Sequence record: OM386667.1
DNA length: 64,000 nt
Strand: one strand, 5' to 3'
Source: Escherichia phage vB_EcoM_REC
Within the stretch, counting starts at the first letter, position 1. The number at the start of each line of letters is the position of its first letter. The notes under the pieces are model-generated. The model saw only the letters and a program-made list of their open reading frames with translations. It ran no database searches and was not told where the DNA came from. Below are positions 22,042-50,556 of this stretch, piece after piece. Both the position numbers and the translations under genes were made by a program.

Positions 22042-22644
22042 TTATGGACATTCATACCATTCTTTTTTACCACCGAAGGCCATCACCACATCACAAATAT
22101 CCAGACCAGCTTTACCTACACCATATGCTTTCAGCTTCCATTCCCCATCTTCACGAACCAAGGAAGCCACGTGGCAGATTGTGTTGCCAGCTACTTCAGG
22201 AGCCAGGAAGTCAAAATCCAGAATTTCCACATTGCGCTCGGAGTCGAAGATTTTAAGCATACCTTCAGAAGCATGACCAAAACGTTTCAGACCTGTATCA
22301 TCATCAATGGTCAGAACAAAGGCAATCTCTTGTGCATCAGGAGAGATTTTAGCCAAAGTAATATCAATCTGCTCCATGCTGCCAGTTCCATCACGAACAT
22401 CGTCACCAGCGAAGGTAGAACGTTCAGGATCAAACTTGTTAGCATAGCAAACCAGATGACGTGCAGACAGCATTTCAGGATTACCAGCGGCATTGTGACG
22501 ACAAACCAGTGCACTTACATCCAGATCCAGTTTAGAATCAGATTTCCAAGAGAATTCCAGGCGCAGTTCTTTCAGAGCCGGAGCAACTTTCTTCAGGGAA
22601 ATTTTTTCGCTAGAGCCTTTTTTCAGGGAAATTTTATCAGTCAT
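22042..22644 (-). CDS. terD: TerD-family protein (tellurite-resistance TerD domain)
   Basis: 200 aa; N-terminal doubled ISLKKG/ISLKKV strand, DLDVSAL, GDDVRDGTGSMEQI, IAFVLTIDD, GEWKLKAYGVGKAG follow the bacterial TerD pattern closely. Confidence 0.85.
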   Translation of the reverse strand: MTDKISLKKGSSEKISLKKVAPALKELRLEFSWKSDSKLDLDVSALVCRHNAAGNPEMLSARHLVCYANKFDPERSTFAGDDVRDGTGSMEQIDITLAKISPDAQEIAFVLTIDDDTGLKRFGHASEGMLKIFDSERNVEILDFDFLAPEVAGNTICHVASLVREDGEWKLKAYGVGKAGLDICDVVMAFGGKKEWYECP

Positions 22645-22659
22645 CTTTTGTCTCCTCTA

Positions 22660-22929
22660 TTATTTAAGTGTAATACCAGTTACAGTCAATTCTACTTCCA
22701 AAAGCTTAGATGTGTTTTGGATTGATACTAATTGTGCATGATGGTTTAGTTCTACAGCAGAATAATCATTTTCCCCATCATCTACTTTTAAATAAACAAT
22801 GATTTCACTAAGGTCTAAACCATTTTCGTCAAATGCATTTTCATAGACGAAAGTATCTCCTACATCCAAATCTTTAATGGTAAGGCATCGTTTATTTACT
22901 TTTTGCTCATCAATTTCGAAGTTTAACAC
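22660..22929 (-). CDS. small protein, paralog of 23951-24229
   Basis: 89 aa; shares DLDVG.TF.Y..A..E.GLD ... E.TVT.ITLK with the ORF upstream of the vWA gene. Confidence 0.4.
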   Translation of the reverse strand: MLNFEIDEQKVNKRCLTIKDLDVGDTFVYENAFDENGLDLSEIIVYLKVDDGENDYSAVELNHHAQLVSIQNTSKLLEVELTVTGITLK

Positions 22930-23158
22930 TTCTTCCTCCTAATGTTATCTCCGGTTTGTATATACGAAGAATTATAGCATTTTCATTTTCTTTGTCAACC
23001 CATTCTTCATAATCGGGCCATACATGAATCTCCACTCTACTTACAATATCTTCCATTCGCACAGTCCCAATGAAATACTCTTTGAGACTGCGCATAATGA
23101 AAGCTTCTCTCTCGCGCCAATAATTTTCTATGACTTGAGAGGCAAGCTCGTCGATCAT
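22910..23158 (-). CDS. hypothetical protein
   Basis: 82 aa ORF. Confidence 0.35.
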   Translation of the reverse strand: MIDELASQVIENYWREREAFIMRSLKEYFIGTVRMEDIVSRVEIHVWPDYEEWVDKENENAIILRIYKPEITLGGRSVKLRN

Positions 23159-23949
23159 TTTTTAGCACCTACTTTAACAACCCACTCTCCGAACTCTTCA
23201 GATAAGAGTTTGTCATAAAGCTCTGAATCTGTCAAGTCTAAATCTTTAATGCCAATAAAACCAACATTATCATAAGCATTTGCCAGTTCTTTCAGGAACC
23301 CAAACTTCTCATTACCAACGCCAACCATGAACCAATAAATAGGTTTATTCTTATTCTCTTCAATAAGACGACGAACAGCACTAGGATCACCATTCTCACC
23401 ATCCGTCTGGAAGAATACAACACCAGGGGTAACGTCAGCACCTGGTTCAGATACAGCTACAACTTTTTCACGCTCTACAGACACTGTTTCAGTTTTACCA
23501 AGCAGACGATTAAAGAAGCCTTTCTTTGGAGCCTCCTCTTGTACCACTTGTTTAGTGGTAATATATTTGGTAACAGTGCCAAAATACTCACCGTAGATAT
23601 CTGCCATTACAGGGGCGTAATTTGTTCCACCTCCGATACGAACATTACGCATACATTTACCAACATAGTCATCGTAAACGTCTGCTGTTGCTGGAGTAAG
23701 CTCTTGGGAACTCGTATTGAAGGCCCACATATCAATTTGTTGATTATCGTCGAACAGCATACCAAAAGGAAGCAGTTTACCTACAAAATCACTCACTACC
23801 CCACTAGAATATAGACCATGCATACTACCAGAAATATCTAGAGCACATGCTACACGAAGAACAATCTTACCTTCATTCAGGTTCTTATTCTTTTTCAGAG
23901 AGAAAGCAAGGTTTTCTTGACGTTTTTTCAGGCTGATTTTCTCGGACAT
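23155..23949 (-). CDS. von Willebrand factor A (vWA) domain protein with TerD-like N-terminal strand
   Basis: 264 aa; MIDAS motif DISGSM, later FFQTDGENGD; N-terminus MSEKISLKK...AFSLKK echoes the TerD N-terminal motif. Confidence 0.65.
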   Translation of the reverse strand: MSEKISLKKRQENLAFSLKKNKNLNEGKIVLRVACALDISGSMHGLYSSGVVSDFVGKLLPFGMLFDDNQQIDMWAFNTSSQELTPATADVYDDYVGKCMRNVRIGGGTNYAPVMADIYGEYFGTVTKYITTKQVVQEEAPKKGFFNRLLGKTETVSVEREKVVAVSEPGADVTPGVVFFQTDGENGDPSAVRRLIEENKNKPIYWFMVGVGNEKFGFLKELANAYDNVGFIGIKDLDLTDSELYDKLLSEEFGEWVVKVGAKK

Positions 23950-23950
23950 A

Positions 23951-24229
23951 TTATTTCTCCTTCTTAAGTGTAATATTGGTAACTTCTAAATCTACTTCCA
24001 CCATATTTGTATCTGGTGGGATGCAATGAGTATAGCCTCGTTGTGCTAGTGATCCATTAATACAAATCGCACTGTTTGTGGAATTTTTAATGAACACCAA
24101 GTTACGGTAGGTATCCAACCCTGCGTCTTCATAGGCATCATAATACATGAATGTTGCCCCTACGTCAAGATCTTCGAAAGCAATAGGTAAATCTTGACTT
24201 TTTTCTTCTTGAATATTGAATCTAAACAC
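23951..24229 (-). CDS. small protein, paralog of 22660-22929
   Basis: start placed at the GTG (24229) preceded by AGGAGG at 6-nt spacing, which removes a 74-bp overlap of the longest ORF. Confidence 0.4.
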   Translation of the reverse strand: MFRFNIQEEKSQDLPIAFEDLDVGATFMYYDAYEDAGLDTYRNLVFIKNSTNSAICINGSLAQRGYTHCIPPDTNMVEVDLEVTNITLKKEK

Positions 24230-24785
24230 GCATACCTCCTCTACCAATTTTGAAGCCCAAATCGTAAGCTTCCTTAGTGATCTTTTGTAACTCACTTATA
24301 GGAAGTGTTACAAGAGGATCATCTTCTTCAATTTCCATCTTGTCATCTTCTGTTTCAATGAGAGTATTATGCACTTTGTGATAAGGGTTGTCAACACGTT
24401 TAAACTTATTCTTTTCTGTGCTGAAAAAACAATCTGGATCTTCTTCACCATCACCCCAACCTTGGTTAGGATCTCCGTCAGATTGTTCTGTAGGGATTTC
24501 ACCTGTAAAGTACTCTTCCAGCACCATAGCGATACCGTCCCTTGGATTTGAGGAATGCATCAAATCACAAACCTTACTCCAATCCATAGCCCATTCAAAT
24601 CGTTCACGAACACCATTTTCATCCTCCTTTCCAGAGAAAACACAACCATAACTATCATAGTTCCCATACATCTCTTCAATAACAACACCGTCCTTCAAAA
24701 GAAAGAGGTAGCAAGGTGATCCGTCGAAAGAAGTAGAAAGGGCAGCTTTGCCCGATTCTTTGCACAAAAAGCTAAAACAACCCAT
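24222..24785 (-). CDS. hypothetical acidic protein
   Basis: 187 aa ORF. Confidence 0.4.
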   Translation of the reverse strand: MGCFSFLCKESGKAALSTSFDGSPCYLFLLKDGVVIEEMYGNYDSYGCVFSGKEDENGVRERFEWAMDWSKVCDLMHSSNPRDGIAMVLEEYFTGEIPTEQSDGDPNQGWGDGEEDPDCFFSTEKNKFKRVDNPYHKVHNTLIETEDDKMEIEEDDPLVTLPISELQKITKEAYDLGFKIGRGGMRV

Positions 24786-25183
24786 TACAAACCCTCCTTC
24801 AGATTATCAAGAGCTACAGTGGTTTCACAAAATTCTCCATAAGCTTTATGATGTTCCAGAAAAGCTTCGGGTCCACCCCAGTCATTATCTTGTGTATTCC
24901 AGCCATCAATAAAAGCATCTTCAATGATTGTGATCAGTTCCTGTCGAGTCAGCGTAATGGTATCAGGTTTCTGCGTAGTTTCCACACGGAACCCTGGTTC
25001 TTCATAAAAACCTTTAGTTACAATGGACTCTAACTCTTCTGCATCACAGAGGAAGTAGCCACAAAGATAACACCAACCGTCACCATCTTTCATTACTTCA
25101 TAAACTTCACCACTTGCTAACTTAGTGAAAAGAGTAGGGTCTGTTACTGTAAGTTTTAAAAGAATACCTGTTGGATTATACAT
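24785..25183 (-). CDS. hypothetical protein
   Basis: 132 aa ORF. Confidence 0.4.
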   Translation of the reverse strand: MYNPTGILLKLTVTDPTLFTKLASGEVYEVMKDGDGWCYLCGYFLCDAEELESIVTKGFYEEPGFRVETTQKPDTITLTRQELITIIEDAFIDGWNTQDNDWGGPEAFLEHHKAYGEFCETTVALDNLKEGL

Positions 25184-25349
25184 CTTCTTCCTCCTCTAAA
25201 ATATGGAACCCGTAATTACAATAATCCTGAAAGGTTTCGTGTGCAAGATCTTCTATATCCTCTTGAGACATATCATCTTCAATTTCGATATCCACAACCT
25301 CATTGCATCCACACCAAGCAGTTTCAATATTCACTCGTAATATTTTCAT
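25176..25349 (-). CDS. small acidic Cys-containing protein (57 aa), not in ORF track
   Basis: ATG overlaps upstream stop (TAATG); fills an otherwise empty 165-bp gap. Confidence 0.25.
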   Translation of the reverse strand: MKILRVNIETAWCGCNEVVDIEIEDDMSQEDIEDLAHETFQDYCNYGFHILEEEEDV

Positions 25350-25549
25350 TACTCCTCCTCCTCCTCATTGAAGTCAATATCTGCAAGGAGTTCGAATTTA
25401 CGGAAGTTACGACAACCTTCATAAATATAACAATCACGACAAACTGCTAGAACACTTGGGGGATATATGCCTCCCATCGGTGCGAATCGTTTTTCGTCAT
25501 CATAACGGACACCAATGTCTTCATCAATTATATAGATACGGATTCTCAT
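25349..25549 (-). CDS. hypothetical small protein with acidic tail
   Basis: 66 aa ORF ending EEEEE. Confidence 0.3.
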   Translation of the reverse strand: MRIRIYIIDEDIGVRYDDEKRFAPMGGIYPPSVLAVCRDCYIYEGCRNFRKFELLADIDFNEEEEE

Positions 25550-26658
25550 TTACCAAGCCCTCGTTTCACAGCAGCTACCATCCCGTCTTCCAGAGATTGA
25601 ACTTCATTAATATAATCAACACGAGCAGCACGGGCTTCCGTATTGATGCGGTTAGTTTCTTCCAACATCTTAACCAAGTTTTCCTGATCGTGACGCAGAG
25701 TTTCAATATCCAACACTTGACGGTTAGCCAGTGCTGCTGCTTCGATCTGATTCTGTGTGGCAAGATCGCTACCCAGTTTAATTGCCAGGTTAAATTCATC
25801 AAGAACGTTATTCTGCGTCTCTGCTGCTTTCATTTGACGTAAGCTCTCGATATACATTGAGAAGTTAGCAGAGTAAGCAGGAATAACATTATTTACTATG
25901 TTACGCGCAGATCGCATTAAGCTTGCAGAAACTTTTTGCATACCTTGTACACGCGGTCCCATTTGGACACACAGTAGGCGCAATGCTTTTAAATCTGCAA
26001 TACGAATCTCCAGAAGATCCAAAGTATCTCGGATCACTTGTCGCTGTTCTACTGCATCTTCTGGAAGAGCAGCCAAAGCTTGTTCTTCTTTTTCATAGGT
26101 TGCTGTTAGAAGCTGCATATCTCGGTTCAAACTTGCAGCATATTGTCCAATAGCTTGATGTAGCTTTTCAAGATATACCAAGGAATCTTCTTCTTTGCGA
26201 ATATCCATTTGAAGGTTCTTTACCAACTCTTCAATACGGTTATTAACATTATCAAACTCCCCGAACAGGTCTTCTTTCATACCCATAACTTTTTTAATGA
26301 GTTTAGTAATACCCTTACTTTGTTTAATAGAGTTTGGATCAAGTTGTTTTGCCTGTTTAATCAAAGCTGTGAGTCGTTCACTCATCTGATCGCCTTGATT
26401 ACTACGTTGATGTTTTAACACCTCGGCATTCAAGGAACGCAAGGTTGTTCCTGCCTCTGCCCCAATCTCTTCAATCTCTTGTCGGGTCATAGAAGGCAAA
26501 ACTGGAACTTCTTGCGGTGCCGCTGGTGCATAAACAGGACTGGCATCTAACACGCTTGGAGCGAATACAGATTTACTTGCATCTGTTGTTGCAGCAAATA
26601 CGCTCATTTCAGGCTTCTTCTGACCACCAGTAGCTGCTTTTAAAAATGGACTTGTCAT
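25546..26658 (-). CDS. TelA/KlaA-like coiled-coil protein (toxic-anion-resistance family), tentative
   Basis: 370 aa, predominantly helical/coiled-coil; size and composition fit TelA; the call rests largely on the Ter-gene neighbourhood. Confidence 0.35.
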   Translation of the reverse strand: MTSPFLKAATGGQKKPEMSVFAATTDASKSVFAPSVLDASPVYAPAAPQEVPVLPSMTRQEIEEIGAEAGTTLRSLNAEVLKHQRSNQGDQMSERLTALIKQAKQLDPNSIKQSKGITKLIKKVMGMKEDLFGEFDNVNNRIEELVKNLQMDIRKEEDSLVYLEKLHQAIGQYAASLNRDMQLLTATYEKEEQALAALPEDAVEQRQVIRDTLDLLEIRIADLKALRLLCVQMGPRVQGMQKVSASLMRSARNIVNNVIPAYSANFSMYIESLRQMKAAETQNNVLDEFNLAIKLGSDLATQNQIEAAALANRQVLDIETLRHDQENLVKMLEETNRINTEARAARVDYINEVQSLEDGMVAAVKRGLGK

Positions 26659-27245
26659 TCTTCATTCTCCTCTTCTGCATCTCTTATATATGGTGAAACA
26701 CCGTACTCTTTAGCTACTTTAACCCAATCGTCCCATTTATACAACCATAATTTTCCTTCGGTCCCTTCTTTATCTGATTTCAACCACATATTAGGTTGCT
26801 TACCTGGGTACATGCGATTAGGTTTACGATTATAACCTCTAACACATCTTGTCGCAAACCTATCTACCAGAACAAGAACATATTTATATTCGTGGTTCAA
26901 CGGCTCTTTGGAAGTGGCTTTAGGATTAGCCCCTAATTCTGCTGCCAGTTTTTGCCAATGAGCACCGTGCCTACTAAACTTACCCATACAACCATCAATA
27001 GCATGAGCAATTTCGTGCTTCATTGTATCCACGATCATATCTCTTGTGGAGTTCTTATGCAAGTGCCAATTTACAACAACAATTTTATCTCGGTAGTTGC
27101 ACCAACCGAAAGAGTTATTCACTTTGTTTCTAACACAAGCTTTATATCCTGCTTCACGTAACATGTTGTAGTAAACAGGAAAATCTTCTTTTATTTCCTG
27201 CATCACTTCCCACCACAAGAGTTGCAAGTCTCTCTCGGTATGCAT
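26655..27245 (-). CDS. SprT-like zinc metalloprotease domain protein
   Basis: 196 aa; HEIAHAIDGCMGKFSRHGAHW contains HExxH followed by GHxxxW as in SprT-like domains. Confidence 0.5.
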   Translation of the reverse strand: MHTERDLQLLWWEVMQEIKEDFPVYYNMLREAGYKACVRNKVNNSFGWCNYRDKIVVVNWHLHKNSTRDMIVDTMKHEIAHAIDGCMGKFSRHGAHWQKLAAELGANPKATSKEPLNHEYKYVLVLVDRFATRCVRGYNRKPNRMYPGKQPNMWLKSDKEGTEGKLWLYKWDDWVKVAKEYGVSPYIRDAEEENEE

Positions 27246-27248
27246 AAC

Positions 27249-27842
27249 TTACACCTTAAAAGCGAAATGCGTGGTCGTGGCTTCAAAATCAGGGCCAGAT
27301 AAACTTGCACTGAAATCTGAAATATTTGTAATTAAAAAGCTTTTATGCATACCTAACACAGCCACGCTTTCAATATCTTCTACTAACATTTCAATCATGT
27401 TAGAAACATGGCTGAACGTATAGTTTTGTTTTTTGATGGTGTAGAAAGAAAGACTCCCACCTGCTGTATAAGATACCTCTTCAAAATCTTTAATCGTATA
27501 TTGTGTGCCATCAGTAAAGAAAATGGTAGCTTTATTAGTAGCACGTTTCTTGTTTTTTGGTCCTTTTTTACGTTTACTGCGAGTAGGCAAACCGTTTGGG
27601 AACACCATAGCTACAAATTCTTCAGGAGAAACCTCCTTACCGAAATCATAACCGTAAGAAACAGCGTCTATAAACTCGTCGTCTTCATTTTTAAAATAAT
27701 GAAAATAGGGCCAATTTGAGAGATTATCGAGCATCTTATGCTCATCCACAGCAGAGAACGTATCCCTCAAAGCACGTGTGATTTGCAAAGCATTAGGCAA
27801 ACTTTTAACACCTGTAATGGAAGTACGAATAGAAATTGTCAT
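27249..27842 (-). CDS. hypothetical protein
   Basis: 197 aa ORF. Confidence 0.4.
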   Translation of the reverse strand: MTISIRTSITGVKSLPNALQITRALRDTFSAVDEHKMLDNLSNWPYFHYFKNEDDEFIDAVSYGYDFGKEVSPEEFVAMVFPNGLPTRSKRKKGPKNKKRATNKATIFFTDGTQYTIKDFEEVSYTAGGSLSFYTIKKQNYTFSHVSNMIEMLVEDIESVAVLGMHKSFLITNISDFSASLSGPDFEATTTHFAFKV

Positions 27843-27856
27843 TGTTTTTCTCCTTA

Positions 27857-28294
27857 TTAACGTCGCTTGCTACGAGATGAACTCTTTTTACTTAAAGGGC
27901 TATTGTAAGATTTACGAGTTGTATAGCTACTATTTGTTTTAAAAGTTTGTCTCGGCTTTTCATAAGTTTTTATCTCTTGTTTAGGCTTACCATAAAAATT
28001 AGTTTTCGGTTTAGGTGTATTATAATGCTTATTAATAATCGTTCTGTTATCGTTATAATCCCCACTGCTACGATTACTACCGCCACTCATCATATGCCCT
28101 AACAACATACCTGTAGCAAACTCACCAACACCGCTACTACTAGAACCGCCACCATTGTTGATAATAGTTGTATCTCCGTCAGATCCTTGTTGAGCGTATT
28201 GTTGAGGAGGTTGTTGGTATTGTGCAGGATTTGTTTCATCCTCGCAAGCTGTTAAAAAGATACAACCAATTAAAATCAGGGCTAGTTTTTTCAT
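27857..28294 (-). CDS. lipoprotein, Gly/Ser-rich with basic C-terminus
   Basis: start placed at MKKLALILIGCIFLTAC (lipobox LTAC) preceded by GAGGAAA RBS; C-terminus SKKSSSRSKRR. Confidence 0.5.
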   Translation of the reverse strand: MKKLALILIGCIFLTACEDETNPAQYQQPPQQYAQQGSDGDTTIINNGGGSSSSGVGEFATGMLLGHMMSGGSNRSSGDYNDNRTIINKHYNTPKPKTNFYGKPKQEIKTYEKPRQTFKTNSSYTTRKSYNSPLSKKSSSRSKRR

Positions 28295-28481
28295 ATTTGC
28301 TTTCCTCGTTTTGGCTATTAATACATCTGTGTTTGAAATCTCCAGAGAAGCAATAAAGTTGCTCTCCATCTCGGTATAAACTCACTTTACTGCCGTTGAT
28401 TACGCTTGTCAATACAAAAATTACAACAAACAACCCTATTGCAAAACAGATATTTTCAAACACAACCAACAAGTATTTCAT
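28236..28481 (-). CDS. small membrane protein (uncertain)
   Basis: 81 aa with hydrophobic N-terminus; overlaps the lipoprotein start region, so one of the two calls may be wrong. Confidence 0.25.
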   Translation of the reverse strand: MKYLLVVFENICFAIGLFVVIFVLTSVINGSKVSLYRDGEQLYCFSGDFKHRCINSQNEESKYEKTSPDFNWLYLFNSLRG

Positions 28482-28828
28482 TTTAAAAACACCTCATCAT
28501 CAGTCTCATTATCCCAGAAGAACAAATCCCAACCATTTGGATCATTCCATTTGGCTGCTGGAGAAGTCCATATTTGCTCAATATCAATATTCAAAACTTC
28601 ACCGTTTCGTTTTGAAACAGCTTTAGTTAATTCCCAACGAGATACAGGCTCTACTTCTCCTGAACCACTTCCACAACAAGCTACAACATTAGGAGGCAAA
28701 TTAATTGGATCTTTGGTCACAATCATAACGCTTACCCCAGGGTAAACTTTTGAAAGATAATCTGAAATGTAATCCACATCACCAGATAAATCCCAAACAA
28801 GTTCTTGAATTTCATCAAAATTACTCAT
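28478..28828 (-). CDS. hypothetical protein
   Basis: 116 aa ORF with AGGAGAG RBS. Confidence 0.4.
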   Translation of the reverse strand: MSNFDEIQELVWDLSGDVDYISDYLSKVYPGVSVMIVTKDPINLPPNVVACCGSGSGEVEPVSRWELTKAVSKRNGEVLNIDIEQIWTSPAAKWNDPNGWDLFFWDNETDDEVFLK

Positions 28829-28870
28829 AAGTCTCTCCTATAAAATAGCCTCCCGAAGGAGGCTCATTTA

Positions 28871-29845
28871 TTAAACAGTAGCTTCTTCTTTTTCAGGGAA
28901 GATAAAGCTTGCAATAACACCAAGAGCTAATGTGCCCAGGACAATATACATACTAATAGTTGGATCAATGTGCGCTGGCAGGAAGCTCATTTTTTCATGT
29001 AACGTTTCTGCAAACGGGTGATACATTAGTTTAACACCTACAAACACCAGAACCACAATAACTGCTTTCTCCAAGTGAACCAGATACTTCAGTGCAACAC
29101 TAAGAACAAAGAACAGAGCACGTAGACCTAAGATTGCACATAACATCGAAGAGAATACAAGCAGAGGTTCTTGTGTTACTGCGATCACTGCCGGAACAGA
29201 ATCTACTGCAAAGATTACATCAACCATTTCCATCACGAATACGCAAACCAAAGCTGGAGTTGCTACACGAACACCATTTTCGATTGTGAAGAACTTCTCC
29301 CCATCCATTTTATTAGATACAGGGAACAGTTTACGAACAATACGGGTAGCCCAGTGTTTAGAGTAATCAACTTCTGCGTCATTATTTCCAGCAAATACCA
29401 TTTTAGCTGCACAGAAAAGGATGACCGCACCGAAGAAGATATTAACATACCAGCCCAAACTTAACAAGTAAGTGCCTACTGCTACAAACACACCTCGGAA
29501 GACAATCGCACCTGCAATACCCCAAAGTAGAATCTTGTGCTGCAAGTGTGTGCTTTTAATACCAAAACTTGCGAATACTGCTACAAATACTACCAAGTTA
29601 TCTACCGACAAAGATTTTTCCAACACATATCCACTTAAAAACAAGTTAGCAAAATCGGCACCATGTTGGAAGTATACAAAACCATAATAAGCTAATGATA
29701 CACCAATCCAAAAGATCGACCAACCAACTGCGGATTTGAATGAAATTTCTTTATTTTCTTTGTGACCAAAGAAATCAATACCAATAGACAATGCTAAAAT
29801 ACCAACTAAAACAACTACATCAATAATTGGGAAACCAAGTTGCAT
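28871..29845 (-). CDS. terC: TerC-family integral membrane protein
   Basis: 324 aa, multiple TM helices; FGHKENKEISFKSAVGWSIFWIGVSLAY and LEKSLSVDNLVVFVAVF match the TerC/Alx signature. Confidence 0.85.
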   Translation of the reverse strand: MQLGFPIIDVVVLVGILALSIGIDFFGHKENKEISFKSAVGWSIFWIGVSLAYYGFVYFQHGADFANLFLSGYVLEKSLSVDNLVVFVAVFASFGIKSTHLQHKILLWGIAGAIVFRGVFVAVGTYLLSLGWYVNIFFGAVILFCAAKMVFAGNNDAEVDYSKHWATRIVRKLFPVSNKMDGEKFFTIENGVRVATPALVCVFVMEMVDVIFAVDSVPAVIAVTQEPLLVFSSMLCAILGLRALFFVLSVALKYLVHLEKAVIVVLVFVGVKLMYHPFAETLHEKMSFLPAHIDPTISMYIVLGTLALGVIASFIFPEKEEATV

Positions 29846-29924
29846 TCTTTTCTCCTCTCTTTGCGGGGAACTATTCCCCGCTTCATGTGATATATCTTAC
29901 TCTTTTTAAGAACTATGTCAACAC

Positions 29925-30146
29925 TTATTTTGTTGAATGAGAGGAAAAGATTCCTCGTAATACAGCCAGAATAAACGAAACACAAACCACGGTCCAGAAG
30001 GTTACTGGGACAGTGATATCTGCATGACCCATAACTTCAGCAACATAGTTGTAAGCCAGCAACAGTAACCAAGCTGGAATCAAACTAAGCATAAAAGCAA
30101 TAACAAAAAAGCTTACCACTGCAACAATACCTGCAAAAACACCCAT
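29925..30146 (-). CDS. small membrane protein (two predicted TM helices)
   Basis: 73 aa hydrophobic ORF. Confidence 0.4.
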   Translation of the reverse strand: MGVFAGIVAVVSFFVIAFMLSLIPAWLLLLAYNYVAEVMGHADITVPVTFWTVVCVSFILAVLRGIFSSHSTK

Positions 30147-30158
30147 ACTAATCTCCTC

Positions 30159-30632
30159 TTAAAGTTTATAAATAGTCACATCGTGACCTGTTTTTACTAA
30201 AGTTTCTTCAATCATCACTTGGATGATAGCCCAATTACCTCCAGCATATCCAGCGCCAATCATAGGTAAGCCGATCTTACATTTTTGGTCACGGAGAAGC
30301 AAATCGTTAGCCATAGCTATTAGTGCATCGTAAAGTGCATCATAGTCCAACTGACGACCTTTAGCATTGTATCCGTAACGGTATTGCCCGTATAGATTAT
30401 ATACCAAAGGGTCTGATTGTTCGTCTGGCACCCCTAAACTAAAACAACCTAGTTTACTTTGATCACCAGCCGTTGTGTCTAAGTCTGCTGCATATGCGTA
30501 AGGAAATGCTTGTTTGATTTGTGGGGCAATACCTGCCCCCATATTACACATACAGTTGCAACAATGAGCAATAACAGTTACTTCACCTGCTTTAGCGGCA
30601 TCAATAAGATTACCTGTTTTCATTTTAAGCAT
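30159..30632 (-). CDS. macro-domain-like protein (ADP-ribose / Appr-1-p processing family), tentative
   Basis: start placed at the internal ATG (30632) with AAGGAG RBS just after the upstream stop; VTVIAHCCNCMCNMGAGIAPQIKQAF and IGLPMIGAGYAGGNW resemble macro-domain nucleotide-binding loops. Confidence 0.4.
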   Translation of the reverse strand: MLKMKTGNLIDAAKAGEVTVIAHCCNCMCNMGAGIAPQIKQAFPYAYAADLDTTAGDQSKLGCFSLGVPDEQSDPLVYNLYGQYRYGYNAKGRQLDYDALYDALIAMANDLLLRDQKCKIGLPMIGAGYAGGNWAIIQVMIEETLVKTGHDVTIYKL

Positions 30633-30645
30633 TTTTAGCTCCTTA

Positions 30646-31473
30646 TTACAGAATGTGTTGTTTTGTGTAACGATCCAAGAATTCAAAGTTTTCAGCATAC
30701 TTTGAAATTCGGTTGTAACCTTCTCCCAAGCATCCAAAGAAAAGTTGCTCTACATAGTAATGTGGCAATTGGCTAAGAATGATTTTGAAGTCTTCATGAT
30801 TTTGGCCCATAAGATACTTAATAGGACGAACAAGACACTGTGCATCACGTTCTTCACTAATCATTTTAACAAACGCTTCTGGTGTATTAATGTAGTTAAA
30901 ATTCAGTTTAGCTTCGGTATCTGCTTGATTACCTTCGTATTTTGCAAAATACAAGAAGTAAACATCATTTTTAACTTGATTTTCATCAAGGATCTCAATC
31001 AGTTTGTCTTCATGCGTTCCAGTGATATTTACATCATCAATGAATACAAGCTTCTTATCACCCCAGAATTCTTTGTTGCAGTAGAATGTATCACCATCAA
31101 TAAGTTTCTTACGACTAGCTTTATCCAAGAAACCATAATCGTTGATATAGCTAACTTTACGATGAATAATGTCCAGTTCTGCTGAACGACCTTGATCATA
31201 TTGTGATTGCAACATATTAAAATAATTAATAAAATGATCTGTCATCATTGTTGCAGCATTATGCACATGGTTATAAGGAGAAGGAATGATAACAAATTGT
31301 TCCCCAATATGTTTCATTGCCACTTGAGCAAAAAACTGAAGTGCCAATTCTTTACCCATACGACGCGCAGCTTGGTTACTACCAAATTTCAATTTTGAAT
31401 AATCTTGGATATCAAAAGTAGCAGTTTCCAGGTCATCAAATTTATTTGCAAAAATTTGAGTTTGATTACGCAT
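30646..31473 (-). CDS. phosphoribosyltransferase (PRTase type I)-like protein
   Basis: 275 aa; KLVFIDDVNITGTHEDKL matches the PRPP-binding loop pattern (hydrophobic run, DD, then TG-T). Confidence 0.5.
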   Translation of the reverse strand: MRNQTQIFANKFDDLETATFDIQDYSKLKFGSNQAARRMGKELALQFFAQVAMKHIGEQFVIIPSPYNHVHNAATMMTDHFINYFNMLQSQYDQGRSAELDIIHRKVSYINDYGFLDKASRKKLIDGDTFYCNKEFWGDKKLVFIDDVNITGTHEDKLIEILDENQVKNDVYFLYFAKYEGNQADTEAKLNFNYINTPEAFVKMISEERDAQCLVRPIKYLMGQNHEDFKIILSQLPHYYVEQLFFGCLGEGYNRISKYAENFEFLDRYTKQHIL

Positions 31474-32122
31474 TTACAATTTCTCCTCTTTTAAGTTTCT
31501 CTAGTAAGTCGTTAGGGTTCTTAATATGACAGAAGTTAAATCCTAAGTCAACACATTTTCCATCATATTCTTCACTATCGCCTACGTGCAACACTTCGTG
31601 CCCTAACAGAGGGATCGGAGAATACGTGAGCGTGCGAGCAAAGAATCGCGGATCTGGTTTACAAAGTAAAGCTTCATCCGAGAAATGGGTGAACTCAAAA
31701 CAATTCCAACTATCAAACTTACAAGCACGACGCAGGATATCCCCTGATATGAAGTTGGTATTGCTCTTAATACTCAAATCATAACGCCCCGAAAGATACA
31801 GCAAGTACATCGGCAGATCCACGGCTACGTGTGGTGGAAACTTAAGGAACCACTGTTCACACTCGAAACGAAGCTTTGCAGACTTCCAAGGCGTTATCCC
31901 AAGTTCAGAACCAAGTCTTTCCCAGGCGTATGCTGCACACTCGGCTTTGCCTTGAAGTGCTGCATTATCCAGTTCCTTTTTGATCTTCTTATAAGCTGCT
32001 CTTGCTTCCACTTCCGTAATATCTCCATATTTTGCGATAGTCCAGGCTCGCATGTCTGCGTAATTGGAGTTTGCTGTGATCAGTGTGTTCCATACATCAA
32101 AAGAGATATGTTTAATAGTCAT
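31466..32122 (-). CDS. HAD-superfamily hydrolase (phosphatase)
   Basis: 218 aa; motif I ISFDVWNTL (D-x-W-x-T variant), motif III LCKPDP, motif IV HVGDSEEYD. Confidence 0.6.
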   Translation of the reverse strand: MTIKHISFDVWNTLITANSNYADMRAWTIAKYGDITEVEARAAYKKIKKELDNAALQGKAECAAYAWERLGSELGITPWKSAKLRFECEQWFLKFPPHVAVDLPMYLLYLSGRYDLSIKSNTNFISGDILRRACKFDSWNCFEFTHFSDEALLCKPDPRFFARTLTYSPIPLLGHEVLHVGDSEEYDGKCVDLGFNFCHIKNPNDLLEKLKRGEIVNA

Positions 32123-32123
32123 A

Positions 32124-32729
32124 TTAAGCCCACCATGCGTCTAAGTTAAGATTACTGTCTACCACAACTTGTTCTATGTGGTAGCCTTTTATCTGTATCC
32201 CACTGTTCAAGAGCATATCATACGCTTCATTGAAACGCAACTTATCTTCTGCGGAATATAAGCGAGCATTATAAAATCGGTAATCAATTTCTTCAGCATT
32301 AGAAGAAATACGGAAGAAGTTTGTTTCTACTTCGGGATCACTTGCTGAAGTCTTAATGTGAACTTCTCCATAATTTTCTTTACTTAGATCCATGAAAAGA
32401 ACACAGGCAACATGTTTAAACATTCGTTCCAGTTTGTAACGAACAACATTGAAACCTGCATTCTCAAGTTTTTCTACACACTGCAACATTAAAGTAGTGT
32501 CGAGATCGCTTTGATACTTTGTTAACATACGATCACGTTGAGACTTTGTATCCCGATGTAAATCAATTGTTGTGCATTTGGCACCAATAATCTTAGCTGC
32601 TTTCATCAACTCTTCAGAACTAACGTTAGATAAAGTAAGATGAAAATGGGCTTTCCACACTTTTTTAGCAGGGACACCAAAAGATTTATCCCCACTATTC
32701 GGCATGTTGACTACTACACTATGTTGCAT
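32124..32729 (-). CDS. hypothetical protein (one H-x-T-x motif; possible 2H-phosphoesterase relative, unproven)
   Basis: 201 aa; KAHFHLTLSN contains a single H-x-T-x tetrapeptide; a second clear motif was not found. Confidence 0.35.
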   Translation of the reverse strand: MQHSVVVNMPNSGDKSFGVPAKKVWKAHFHLTLSNVSSEELMKAAKIIGAKCTTIDLHRDTKSQRDRMLTKYQSDLDTTLMLQCVEKLENAGFNVVRYKLERMFKHVACVLFMDLSKENYGEVHIKTSASDPEVETNFFRISSNAEEIDYRFYNARLYSAEDKLRFNEAYDMLLNSGIQIKGYHIEQVVVDSNLNLDAWWA

Positions 32730-32744
32730 TACTTATCTCCTCAC

Positions 32745-32936
32745 TTAAAATGGAAGTCTTTGAAGTTCATCTCCTCCGATATCAAGTAATTTAGCAACAT
32801 CTCGATCAGAAAGCAACTCTTTTCTTTGTAAAATATCCACAAGGGTTGCAAGAATGTCCTTAACGTCCCGATCACTGTTCTTCAAAAGTTCTCCTGCCGT
32901 CCCTACTCTATCTCCTACAGCAAAATATGTAACCAT
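32745..32936 (-). CDS. hypothetical small protein
   Basis: start moved to the internal ATG at 32936 with AGGAGG RBS overlapping the end of nrdG. Confidence 0.35.
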   Translation of the reverse strand: MVTYFAVGDRVGTAGELLKNSDRDVKDILATLVDILQRKELLSDRDVAKLLDIGGDELQRLPF

Positions 32937-32949
32937 GAAACCTCCTAAG

Positions 32950-33420
32950 TTAATCTGATTGCCAACCACTTGCCGTTTTGGTCCATAATCTTTGATTATC
33001 TGACCCTCTGAAAGGTTTTGTAGTTGGATTGTTTATTTCATACTTTCCGTCTACAATAATGTCAACAAGATTTTTAATATACAAAGGCACTTCCTCAAAA
33101 GTATATCCTGTATACACCATTATATCTTTGCTTGACCCATAAACGTCTCTAACCTTTTCTATAAGGTTTTTAACATTGTAAATATTCTGCGGATCTAATG
33201 GCTCTCCTCCTAAAATTGTTAAACCTTTTACAAACGGTCTTGACAAATCTTTTAAAACTTGCTCTACATTTTCGTGAGTAAACGGTTTCCCATAAGAATA
33301 AGACCAGGCTTTTTGGTTAAAACAGCCACGACAACCGTGGCTACAACCACTAACCCAGAGGGAGCACCTAACTCCCTCACCATTAATAAGATCTACAGGT
33401 TCATATCCTGCAAAATTCAA
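32950..33420 (-). CDS. nrdG: anaerobic ribonucleotide reductase activating protein (radical SAM)
   Basis: 156 aa; CSHGCRGC cluster near the N-terminus; directly downstream of and overlapping nrdD. Confidence 0.85.
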   Translation of the reverse strand: MNFAGYEPVDLINGEGVRCSLWVSGCSHGCRGCFNQKAWSYSYGKPFTHENVEQVLKDLSRPFVKGLTILGGEPLDPQNIYNVKNLIEKVRDVYGSSKDIMVYTGYTFEEVPLYIKNLVDIIVDGKYEINNPTTKPFRGSDNQRLWTKTASGWQSD

Positions 33421-35282
33421 AGATGTTTCTCCCTTTGCAAAACTTCCTGCATTTTACCTTTGTTGTAAGGCCGTGAATTAGGGGCAGAAAGATACCCTGA
33501 TACACGTCTAACTACAGAAATAGTTTCTTCTTCATGGTTGCCACAATCAGGACACTCAAACCCTTTAGCCGTTGCCTTAAATTCTCCATGAAAACCACAC
33601 TTAAAGCATTGATCCACGGGCTGATTAATACCAAAATAGTGAATATGTTCATAAGCGTAGTCTACTAAAGTCTCCAAAGCTTCTAAGTTATTCTTTAAGT
33701 TTGGTGTTTCGACATAACTTATGTTACCACCATTACTAATCTGTGCAAAACCTGCTTCATAATCCCATTTTTCAAAAGGATTTGTTACCAACCATACAGG
33801 TTGATGAAAAGAGTTAGTAAGATAGTCTCTTTCTACCAAACTTGGGTATTTTTCATTTAAAGCTGTTGCAAACTTATAGCACAAAGATTCTGCTGGAGTT
33901 CCATAGAGACTAAACGCCAGCTTAGATCGTTCTTTAAACACAGCACACACATCTTTCATATGTTGCAGAATGCTTTTACCAAGTTCCTTTTTATCTTTTT
34001 CTTCTGGATAAAGGATTTCCAAAGCTTCGGCAAGACCTACATAACCAATACTAATAGAAGCATAACCACCTTCAAACAAAACACCAATTTCATCATTGGC
34101 ATTTAAACGCGCTAAAGCCCCTTCCATGAAAAGAATAGGGTTTTCAGATGCTTTGGTATGTCTGATACGGTTTACACGTAGCATGTGAGCATCGTAGGCT
34201 ATCTCCATATGTTTATTAAGAAGATCGGTGAAAGATTCTCCTTTACTTCTCGCTTCCGCAGCGATCAGAGGTAAGTTGATAGAAACTACTCCAAGGTTGA
34301 ATCGTCCATCGTATTTTTCTCCTTGTTCGGTGGCATAGTACGACAAAAAGGAACGACAACCCATACTCGTAACAGTACCATCTGCTGATCCCGTAACTTC
34401 TTTGTTCAAAGGAACAGAAATAAAATCTGGATAAATACGATCAGCACAACATGCCAAAGCTTGTTGCTTAAGGTCATAGTTAGGATCACTAGGTTTCATG
34501 TTAACACCTTCTTGTAAAAAGAAAATAACTTTAGGGAATACAGGCGTTACATGATCTTTGCCTAGACCGTTACTATGCACTTTAAGATAGTTAGCTGTAA
34601 TCATTCTGCCAAAAACAGAGGTATCCAGACCCATACTGATTGTAATAAAAGGAGATTGTCCATTAACACTCATTAAAGTATTAACCTGATACAAGAGAGT
34701 TTGCATAGCATCGTATACATCTTGTTCGGTCATTTCTAGGGCTTCTTTCCTTGCATAACAACCGTAGCGACGTTTGGTTATCTCCATGTTTTTAAGGAAA
34801 CTAGCTTCAACATAAGGACTAAGACCTTTATCAATGTGCGCACACGTGAAACTAGCTTCAACATAAGGACTAAGACCTTTATCAATGTGCGCACACGTCT
34901 GACCTCCATACTGACTGGAGGCAACAGCTTGGATAATTTGAGTTAGCACTGTGGTAGCTACCCCAATAGATTTTGGTTTTTCTATCTGTGCGGCTCCGAT
35001 CTTAAAACCATTCTCTAACATATCTTGATAATTAACAAGACAACAGTTTGTAAGAGGAGAGAGTAGATAATCCAAGTCGTGAATATGTCCAAAACCTTCT
35101 GTATGCCACTCTGACAAGTTTTTTGGCAGTATCTGTGTCATTGCCATATGTTTGCTTAAAATCCCCGCCAAGAGATCCCTATGCGTGTTAACGAGGTGGG
35201 AAGGTTTGTTTGCATTCTCTCTAGTGTATGTTTCTGAAGTGCGATCTAAAAAAGAAAAAACATCTTGGTACAAATCTTTCAT
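33417..35282 (-). CDS. nrdD: anaerobic ribonucleoside-triphosphate reductase
   Basis: 621 aa; C-terminal zinc ribbon CFKCG...CPDCG followed by glycyl-radical motif RVSGYL; carries a 17-aa in-frame tandem duplication. Confidence 0.9.
   Translation of the reverse strand: MKDLYQDVFSFLDRTSETYTRENANKPSHLVNTHRDLLAGILSKHMAMTQILPKNLSEWHTEGFGHIHDLDYLLSPLTNCCLVNYQDMLENGFKIGAAQIEKPKSIGVATTVLTQIIQAVASSQYGGQTCAHIDKGLSPYVEASFTCAHIDKGLSPYVEASFLKNMEITKRRYGCYARKEALEMTEQDVYDAMQTLLYQVNTLMSVNGQSPFITISMGLDTSVFGRMITANYLKVHSNGLGKDHVTPVFPKVIFFLQEGVNMKPSDPNYDLKQQALACCADRIYPDFISVPLNKEVTGSADGTVTSMGCRSFLSYYATEQGEKYDGRFNLGVVSINLPLIAAEARSKGESFTDLLNKHMEIAYDAHMLRVNRIRHTKASENPILFMEGALARLNANDEIGVLFEGGYASISIGYVGLAEALEILYPEEKDKKELGKSILQHMKDVCAVFKERSKLAFSLYGTPAESLCYKFATALNEKYPSLVERDYLTNSFHQPVWLVTNPFEKWDYEAGFAQISNGGNISYVETPNLKNNLEALETLVDYAYEHIHYFGINQPVDQCFKCGFHGEFKATAKGFECPDCGNHEEETISVVRRVSGYLSAPNSRPYNKGKMQEVLQREKHL
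34797..34898. repeat. perfect 51-bp tandem duplication (2 copies) inside nrdD
   Basis: GAAACTAGCTTCAACATAAGGACTAAGACCTTTATCAATGTGCGCACACGT at 34797-34847 and again at 34848-34898; encodes TCAHIDKGLSPYVEASF twice. Confidence 0.9.
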
Positions 35283-35349: not shown

Positions 35350-35378
35350 AATCAAAAAAAGGCGCAAAGTGCGCCTTT
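35350..35378 (-). terminator. rho-independent terminator downstream of the 448-aa gene
   Basis: GGCGC-aaagt-GCGCC hairpin with flanking A7 on plus strand (U-run on minus transcript). Confidence 0.6.
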
Positions 35379-49837: not shown

Positions 49838-50017
49838 ATGGCACGTTTAGCAGATCATGAAATCTTTAAACCTATTCTGAACCACTATGATGAACTTAAA
49901 GCAGTGTTGGATTGTTATAGAGAGGATGAAGAACGTTTGGAAGTCAATCTTAAGATAGTTCTGATGAAAGCTTTTCAAGACGGGCAAGCTAAAGTTTTAG
50001 AAGGCATGAAAAAATGA
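49838..50017 (+). CDS. hypothetical small protein
   Basis: ATG at 49838 preceded by AAAGGAGAAACT. Confidence 0.35.
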   Translation: MARLADHEIFKPILNHYDELKAVLDCYREDEERLEVNLKIVLMKAFQDGQAKVLEGMKK

Positions 50018-50556
50018 GAATAACTGATGAATATGTATTCTTCTTTTCACATAAAGATGTGTTTAGTAATTGGTATATTGCACCCTTTACAGAAACTGAA
50101 CCAGGTTACAATGAGACTTTCTGTTGTGTTGAGCAATATATGATGTGGCGTAAGGCTTTGCTGTTCAAGGATCATGCGATTGCAGCAGCTATCCTTGATC
50201 ACTCAACTATACGTGACAACGAGAGGAAACAAGCATACTACAAACGTATGGGTCGAGCGGTATCTGGTTTTAATAATGATATGTGGGAAGAGAACCGTGA
50301 GCGTATTGTTATGCGAGGCTTATGCTTGAAATATGTACAGAATCCAGATTTGTATGCAGACTTACACCTTTACCAATACAAAACGTTTGTTGAAGCAAGT
50401 CCTTACGATAAGGTTTACGGTATTGGAATGGGAATGTATGAACCAGGGGTGCTAAACCCTGCTACCTGGAAAGGGCAGAATCTTTTAGGCAAATATCATA
50501 ATAAACTGATCGAAATACTTTTCCCAGACAAAATACCGCAAAGACGATATTTGTGA
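50014..50556 (+). CDS. NADAR-domain protein (YbiA/DUF1768 family)
   Basis: 180 aa; FSNWYIAPFT, CVEQYMMWRKALLF, KYVQNPDLYADL, YDKVYGIGMG and GQNLLGKYHNKL follow the conserved NADAR blocks. Confidence 0.7.
   Translation: MRITDEYVFFFSHKDVFSNWYIAPFTETEPGYNETFCCVEQYMMWRKALLFKDHAIAAAILDHSTIRDNERKQAYYKRMGRAVSGFNNDMWEENRERIVMRGLCLKYVQNPDLYADLHLYQYKTFVEASPYDKVYGIGMGMYEPGVLNPATWKGQNLLGKYHNKLIEILFPDKIPQRRYL

Follow-up and report, generated by a model that had tools for sequence, protein, structure and literature searches.

The gene at 30159-30632 of the stretch of DNA analysed here (64,000 nucleotides, hereafter the window) raises the question of whether its product is a macro domain, on what it would act, and whether it works together with the phosphoribosyltransferase (PRTase) and HAD hydrolase genes next to it, since the preliminary description had joined the three into a single ribose-phosphate or ADP-ribose processing pathway. 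The window comes from a Phapecoctavirus (phAPEC8-like coliphage, Stephanstirmvirinae), and over positions 28800-32800 it shares 100% identity with Escherichia phage vB_EcoM_ESCO37 and 98-99.6% with many other coliphages. The features of the locus and of the related genes in the window are the following:

22045-22647, minus strand: TerD
23158-23952, minus strand: vWA-TerF-like gene
25546-26658, minus strand: TelA
26655-27245, minus strand: SprT-like gene
28847-28864, minus strand: terminator-like GC hairpin just after TerC
28871-29845, minus strand: TerC/Alx-family membrane protein (PF03741, E 9.5e-39; TIGR03718, E 4e-95)
29925-30146, minus strand: 73-aa predicted membrane protein with a GAGGAG ribosome-binding site, directly downstream of the macro gene
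30159-30632, minus strand: macro-domain gene, 157 aa, predicted to be Adpp-like and of the ALC1/TARG1-like class (PHROG 335 'phosphatase', E 1.5e-53)
30639-30644, minus strand: Shine-Dalgarno sequence AAGGAG, read from the sequence, right after the PRTase stop
30646-31473, minus strand: PRTase_3, a ComF-like type I PRTase (PF15610, E 9.6e-42) with a conserved PRPP-loop-like motif, DDVxITGTHE
31466-32122, minus strand: HAD family IA hydrolase, the conserved partner of PRTase_3 (weak PF00702 and TIGR02252 matches; phrog_14393)
32124-32729, minus strand: 201-aa protein, phrog_22504, a lineage-specific neighbour
35358-35378, minus strand: second terminator-like hairpin, upstream of nrdD
50014-50556, plus strand: NADAR-family gene at a separate locus (TIGR02464, E 3.8e-33; PADLOC PDC-M42C, E 3.6e-35)

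The mechanical ORF of the macro gene covers 30159-30737 on the minus strand and begins with a TTG, but it contains an internal ATG at 30632, from which a protein of 157 aa is read, MLKMKTGNLIDAAKAGEVTVIAHCCNCMCNMGAGIA...IGLPMIGAGYAGGNW...TIYKL. This ATG is the likely translation start, because the AAGGAG box is located 6 nt upstream of it, nearly all homologues start at the same alignment column, and a start at the TTG would make the gene run into that of the PRTase, whose end is at 30646. Both macro-like motifs quoted in the preliminary description are contained in the 157-aa protein, and the gene lies directly downstream of the PRTase gene as had been stated, at a distance of 13 nt. The gene joins a known and very common phage family and is already so annotated in public records, where it is labelled 'putative phosphatase (Macro_Poa1p_like)', 'phosphatase' or 'macro domain protein'.

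HMM and structure comparisons identified the product of 30159-30632 as a macro domain, which bears out the assignment made earlier from the letters alone. The Pfam Macro model PF01661 was missed marginally (E 2.9e-4, 21.2 bits vs the gathering threshold of 22), while many homologues having 45-55% identity to the protein do carry PF01661. When the single sequence was compared with the PDB, SCO6735 (3.9e-12), BT1257 (1.4e-8) and TARG1 (3.8e-6) were found, followed by the weaker matches of T. aquaticus DarG (1.1e-5) and Poa1p (2e-3). With a profile of 37 family sequences the E-values of macrodomains ranged from 2e-21 to 4e-10 overall, with BT1257 at 2.3e-21, SCO6735 at 1.2e-19 and TARG1 at 3.5e-18. 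The AlphaFold2 model of the protein (pLDDT 94.3, pTM 0.90) gave 213 Foldseek matches at E<=0.001, with a probability of 1.00 to many macro structures, that is, to the three-layer alpha/beta/alpha fold. TARG1, BT1257, DarG, Poa1p and SCO6735 were matched with E-values of about 1e-11 to 1e-8 and TM scores of 0.76-0.87 (TARG1: E 2.5e-11, TM 0.78/0.87). The glycine-rich ADP-ribose-binding loops are present as MGAGIA (31-36) and IGAGYAGG (125-132), and they align with the loops MGAGIA and IGCGLDRL of TARG1 and also with those of SCO6735. The predicted structure places the protein in the ALC1/TARG1-like class of macro domains.

The catalytic dyad of TARG1/OARD1, Lys84-Asp125, is absent from the phage protein, where Q83 and A130 occupy the aligned positions. 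In SCO6735 and BT1257 (PDB 5E3B and 2FG1), as in the phage protein, a Gln replaces the catalytic Lys of TARG1 and DarG and an Asn positions this Gln, and the GxGLAGGxW loop and a long mobile loop after the Gln are also common to them; these two are the best PDB sequence matches, yet they share only ~27% identity with the phage protein. N26 and Q83, which are invariant in the 37-sequence family alignment, correspond to N27 and Q85 of SCO6735, an enzyme that de-ADP-ribosylates thymidine in DNA as well as proteins and requires both residues for its activity on ADPr-thymidine (PMC9411070). The mobile loop after Q83 aligns with that of SCO6735 without gaps and at equal length and carries R85, K91 and R93. 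The equivalents of Gln85 and Asn27 and the extended mobile loop, taken as marks of the SCO6735-type ALC1-like subclass, are all found in the phage protein. On the other hand, the segment AD..T..GD..KLG occurs only in the phage family and is missing from SCO6735, BT1257 and TARG1, Val25 of SCO6735 is Cys24 in the phage protein, and SCO6735 is basic (pI ~9.7 for the aligned part) whereas the phage protein is acidic (predicted pI 5.2). The pI is uninformative as a proxy of DNA binding, because the DNA-acting phage macro protein AdfM is equally acidic. The top structural matches, TARG1/OARD1 (PDB 4J5S) and Poa1p (PDB 6LFR), reach TM scores of 0.78-0.87 at 20-27% identity, and the His of the AHC motif is common to them and the phage protein (H23 in Poa1p). 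Poa1p differs at S30 and F152 (numbering compared with mutant names), where the phage protein has N30 and A130.

Among characterised proteins, the nearest relative is Adpp of Vibrio phage Gary (KNV71_gp137), with 40% identity (E 3e-35) between residues 1-157 of the phage protein and 1-158 of Adpp. Purified Gary Adpp turns ADP-ribose-1''-phosphate into ADP-ribose (Osterman et al., preprint, bioRxiv 10.64898/2026.01.28.702374). It is needed, together with Adps and Namat, to beat the defence by aRES, a RES-domain NAD+ phosphorylase whose homologues in E. coli, Klebsiella and Enterobacter have been cloned; Adpp alone was insufficient against aRES and worked only alongside the other two enzymes (bioRxiv 10.64898/2026.01.28.702374). 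Gary Adpp retains 18 of the 20 residues that are invariant in the 37-sequence alignment, among them every active-site and loop residue (H23, N26, G34, A36, D50, T53, G56, K60, G62, N79, Y81, Q83, Y97, P123, G126, G128, G132 and W134), and the other two, L9 and I39, are conservatively replaced by M and L, respectively. The motifs AHxCNC, MGxGIAP, AD..T..GD.SKLG, N.YGQY and GLP.IG.G.AGG.W are common to both proteins, which are also alike in being phage-encoded, stand-alone and of the same size. With the Adpp of phage Thalassa as the query, the best matches outside Vibrio phages were the macro proteins of Stephanstirmvirinae, Certrevirus and Klebsiella phages, the Stephanstirmvirinae group being retrieved at E<=1e-20. 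Judged by these alignments, the protein and Adpp are members of one phage family. Unlike Adpp, its gene is not flanked by Adps and Namat: it is inserted between the Ter-type PRTase_3 gene and the genes of the small membrane protein and TerC, which differs from the NARP1-borne position of Adpp.

Members of the macro family (PHROG 335) were detected by tblastn in 2,979 of 50,697 phage records (~6%), among them T4-like phages, Felixounavirus, Vequintavirinae, Ackermannviridae, Pakpunavirus-like phages and others. In the Thalassaviruses Thalassa and Gary the member is located between Adps and Namat, in the NARP1 operon, and in Pseudomonas phage Boevelstad it lies a few genes from Adps/Namat. About 130 family members sit in NARP1 operons, where the function was shown (estimate from bioRxiv 10.64898/2026.01.28.702374). 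A conserved island with macro, Nudix, Nampt, NADAR, HAD_SAK_2, SIR2, Prs and Thg1 genes is shared by three phage contigs of ~330 kb (L006, L007 and L009), while in Certrevirus CR8 and another 150-kb phage the macro gene stands alone. The island of the three contigs brings together NARP2-type NAD+ synthesis, ADP-ribose processing and RNA-repair-type genes. Since the family recurs in NARP1 operons and jumbo-phage islands, it is repeatedly linked to NAD/ADP-ribose metabolism.

Partner genes of this kind were sought by local tblastn in the window and in a complete genome, that of Escherichia phage tuntematon (98.7% identity in the region). The Adps and Namat of Gary gave nothing below E 0.2 in either sequence, and Adps, Namat, jumbo-phage Nampt, Nudix-NMNAT and Prs taken together gave nothing below E 0.01. 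In the annotation of tuntematon, no gene of full length is given as Adps/Prs, Namat or Nampt; its sole label of this sort belongs to a 70-aa ORF, 'phosphoribosylpyrophosphate synthetase'. The only counterparts of the jumbo-phage island were the NADAR (50014-50520 in the window) and, beyond the window, tuntematon gp208, which is Sir2-like. As the near-identical genome is without Adps/Namat (NARP1) and Nampt/NMNAT (NARP2), the macro gene is an orphan Adpp-like gene. The third such pathway considered, NARP3 (PnuC and NadR; PMC13464706), is unrelated to the macro locus.

The genes follow each other on the minus strand in the order nrdD, nrdG, a small ORF, the 201-aa gene, HAD, PRTase_3, macro, the 73-aa membrane protein gene and TerC, with the HAD gene overlapping the start of PRTase_3 by 8 nt. 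TerC is the last gene of the apparent transcription unit. The hairpins at 35358-35378 and 28847-28864 bracket the whole series from nrdD to TerC, within which no terminator-like hairpin was found. Given the tight junctions and the presence of terminator-like hairpins only at both ends, macro is likely to be co-transcribed with PRTase_3 and HAD.

Twenty-eight PRTase_3 loci (16 viral and 12 bacterial), collected through a PRTase_3 alignment and annotated with local HMMs, were compared. In 27 of them HAD directly precedes PRTase_3, but macro adjoins PRTase_3 only in the six close, Stephanstirmvirinae-like loci, in which the 73-aa membrane protein gene is also kept downstream of macro. By the same HMMs an adjacent macro was found in none of the 22 more distant HAD-PRTase_3 loci (11 viral, 11 bacterial), and a single one (L028) has a macro at all, ~6 kb away. 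Phage records with the PRTase number 156, so that the macro family, with its 2,979 records, is ~19 times more widespread. The junction of the two genes is variable as well: in a relative whose macro protein is 53% identical (L003), a 184-aa gene is inserted between PRTase and macro (L003:7457-8011), and Justusliebigvirus BME3, which lacks the 201-aa gene, has a macro ORF whose annotation adds ~85 aa at the N-terminus (L017:4734-5450). Neither macro-PRTase nor macro-HAD fusions were seen among the homologues. Several distant phages carry Ter genes (TelA, vWA-TerF, TerD, TerC) along with HAD-PRTase_3. The PRTase and HAD 'signal biosynthesis' genes of Ter systems were reportedly also named by Anantharaman et al. 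in 2012. The HAD-PRTase pair is the proposed biosynthesis pair for a 'nucleoside-like signal' of Ter systems and was noted in phages before (Iyer et al. 2021, PMC7824862), and the surrounding cluster of HAD-PRTase_3, TerC, TelA, vWA-TerF and TerD matches the phage-borne Ter systems described there. In contrast, a macro domain is neither a described nor a conserved component of phage Ter systems and appears here as a lineage-specific insertion. The variable junction, the difference in record numbers and the lack of an adjacent macro in the 22 distant loci speak against the earlier proposal of a common pathway for PRTase, HAD and macro; on gene-neighbourhood grounds, their link looks like a shared position in one phage lineage rather than a shared pathway. 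In a sequence search against solved structures PRTase_3 gave only a marginal match to the PRPP loop of HGPRT (E 0.27), thus no base specificity can be deduced for it. As a separate observation, Nampt and/or Nudix-NMNAT-like genes are found within 8 kb of HAD-PRTase_3 in three of the 11 distant viral loci (L029, L032 and L033), which may reflect the accidental grouping of auxiliary genes or point to a connection of the Ter PRTase module with NAD metabolism.

Considering these results, we lean with modest confidence towards an Adpp-like function, that is, an ADP-ribose-1''-phosphate phosphatase that would serve as an accessory counter-defence or metabolite clean-up gene. The macro hydrolase would bind an ADP-ribose derivative and cleave the group on C1'' of the distal ribose, and its preferred substrate would probably be ADP-ribose-1''-phosphate, converted to ADP-ribose and phosphate. 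This substrate might be supplied by host RES-domain NAD+ phosphorylases such as aRES, known from the literature, which occurs in E. coli, Klebsiella and Enterobacter (bioRxiv 10.64898/2026.01.28.702374). Alternatively, it might be a by-product of NAD-dependent RNA repair, in which ADP-ribose-1''-phosphate may arise (PMC9503650). The gene would be an accessory one placed inside a phage Ter-like cluster, co-transcribed with PRTase_3 and HAD but forming no pathway with them. Because the phage is without NARP1 and NARP2, the ADP-ribose could, speculatively, be recycled by host enzymes, or the removal of the phosphorylated product could be the benefit itself. The fold and class of the protein, the 40% full-length identity to Adpp, the occurrence of the family in NARP1 operons and NAD islands, and the independence from PRTase/HAD argue for this function. 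Nevertheless, 40% identity does not fix substrate specificity, the active-site set of H23, N26, Q83 and GxGxAGGxW is also found in SCO6735, and Adpp worked only with Adps and Namat, whereas neither is detectable in the near-identical Phapecoctavirus genome. The tight spacing with PRTase and HAD, which is conserved across Phapecoctavirus, Justusliebigvirus and the 53%-identical relative, also makes a functional link specific to this lineage conceivable.

Since the active-site set is shared with SCO6735, a different substrate has to be weighed, and it is possible but unlikely that the protein is a DNA (or RNA or protein) ADP-ribosyl glycohydrolase acting as an orphan antitoxin. The macro protein would then reverse DarT2-type thymidine ADP-ribosylation of phage DNA, and the NADAR would handle the DarT1-type guanine modification. 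SCO6735 is the best PDB sequence match, its two essential residues have invariant equivalents, and its mobile loop has the same length; moreover, the sole defence-related matches of the protein are DarG models (PADLOC E 2.8e-10, NCBIfam 1.4e-8), jumbo phages have NADAR and macro genes side by side, and the phage macro protein AdfM is a proven anti-DarT2 factor (PMC13309987). However, the match to the DarG antitoxin model NF048014 reached 34.4 bits vs a cut-off of 250 and covers profile positions 2-147 of 338, and where DarG has its catalytic Lys and a C-terminal DarT-binding domain, the phage protein has Gln and ends at 157 aa. AdfM resembles the phage protein in its macro fold, its similar size and its being encoded by a phage as a stand-alone protein, but their pairwise sequence similarity is essentially nil: an AdfM-type (phiKZ gp104) identity was rejected on a BLASTP E-value of 0.005 over 23 residues and 15.5% identity in the multiple alignment. 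The far closer relative, Adpp, has a demonstrated small-molecule substrate. We regard it as highly unlikely that the protein is an O-acetyl-ADP-ribose deacetylase acting on the product of a phage Sir2-like enzyme. In favour of it, TARG1/OARD1 ranks high among the structural matches, macro and SIR2 genes occur together in the jumbo-phage islands, and Phapecoctavirus encodes a Sir2-like protein (tuntematon gp208) with 33% identity to the jumbo-phage SIR2 near macro; on the other side, this gene lies ~97 kb from the macro gene in the tuntematon genome, the Lys/Asp dyad of TARG1 is absent, and the closest tested relative is a phosphatase.

The neighbouring genes suggest an alternative of another kind, namely that macro, PRTase_3, HAD and possibly the 201-aa protein do constitute one pathway, either for tailoring or recycling the 'nucleoside-like' metabolite of Ter systems or as a new NAD+/ADP-ribose salvage route replacing Adps-Namat. 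The 8-nt and 13-nt junctions without an internal terminator and the HAD-PRTase-macro order, kept in Phapecoctavirus, Justusliebigvirus and the relative with 53% macro identity, are consistent with this, as are the resemblance of the layout to Adps-Adpp-Namat, where a PRTase-fold enzyme flanks macro, the Nampt or Nudix genes near three distant HAD-PRTase_3 pairs, and the lack of NARP1/2 in the phage. We nevertheless consider it improbable, as all 11 bacterial loci are among the 22 in which macro is not adjacent, the macro family is far more widespread in phages than the PRTase, other genes sit between PRTase and macro in relatives, and a HAD nucleotidase step would be ill-suited to the rebuilding of NAD+. 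A more specific form of it, which we hold to be quite improbable, is that an Adpp-like macro was recruited to HAD-PRTase_3 in Stephanstirmvirinae and formed with it an undescribed pathway that stands in for Adps-Namat. In it, macro would release ADP-ribose or ribose-phosphate from a defence-generated NAD product, and the PRTase-fold enzyme would re-attach a base, giving a pyridine nucleotide or a nucleoside-like signal; if true, this would be the first biochemical handle on the products of Ter-system PRTases.

Under the preferred Adpp-like reading, the coliphage offers a clean example of an orphan Adpp-like gene without a NAD+ rebuilding pathway. Such a gene bears on whether the removal of ADP-ribose-1''-phosphate is useful alone, whether host salvage completes the route, or whether the substrates are broader and include DarT2-modified DNA. 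We propose the annotation Adpp-like macro-domain ADP-ribose-1''-phosphate phosphatase (putative) for the macro gene, and the PRTase/HAD pair is better filed under the phage Ter-like system than under ADP-ribose metabolism.

The NADAR gene at 50014-50556, which the preliminary description had invoked as a companion of the macro gene, is real according to its TIGR02464 match. It is 33% identical to the NADAR of the jumbo-phage NAD islands and has homologues in 718 phage records. Phage NADARs (AdfN), one of them from Vequintavirinae, are proven anti-DarT1 enzymes (PMC11825919). Because of the macro domain, its Adpp relative and these proven NADARs, the suggestion that the phage handles NAD-derived products or reverses ADP-ribosylation-based defences is reasonable, while the three-gene pathway attached to it is not retained. 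Nothing in the results points specifically to Thoeris or to the degradation of signals.

The 201-aa protein encoded upstream of HAD matched nothing in Pfam or NCBIfam and no fold decisively, and guesses of a 2H or a CYTH fold were not borne out. Its whole length is matched by the PADLOC 'AbiEi' models (E 4.7e-13). Its distant homologues were found directly upstream of an Acb1 gene with a NADAR nearby (L047/L048) and near DUF4326 and SIR2 (L049), in contexts without PRTase/HAD. From these matches and contexts, it is a candidate for an orphan gene of antitoxin-like or counter-defence function, and it looks like another mobile accessory gene, which fits the picture of counter-defence genes inserted into the operon of the macro gene.

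Two further observations concern the surroundings of the unit. The minus-strand region 22045-29845 of the window carries a near-complete Ter-like gene set, to which the HAD-PRTase_3 pair is added; phage Ter systems were proposed to act in superinfection exclusion (PMC7824862). The nrdD gene (33417-35282, minus strand) contains a direct repeat of ~19 residues, in which TCAHIDKGLSPYVEASF occurs twice, and is longer than its SKA64 homologue; this repeat could have come from a tandem duplication or from an error of the assembly.
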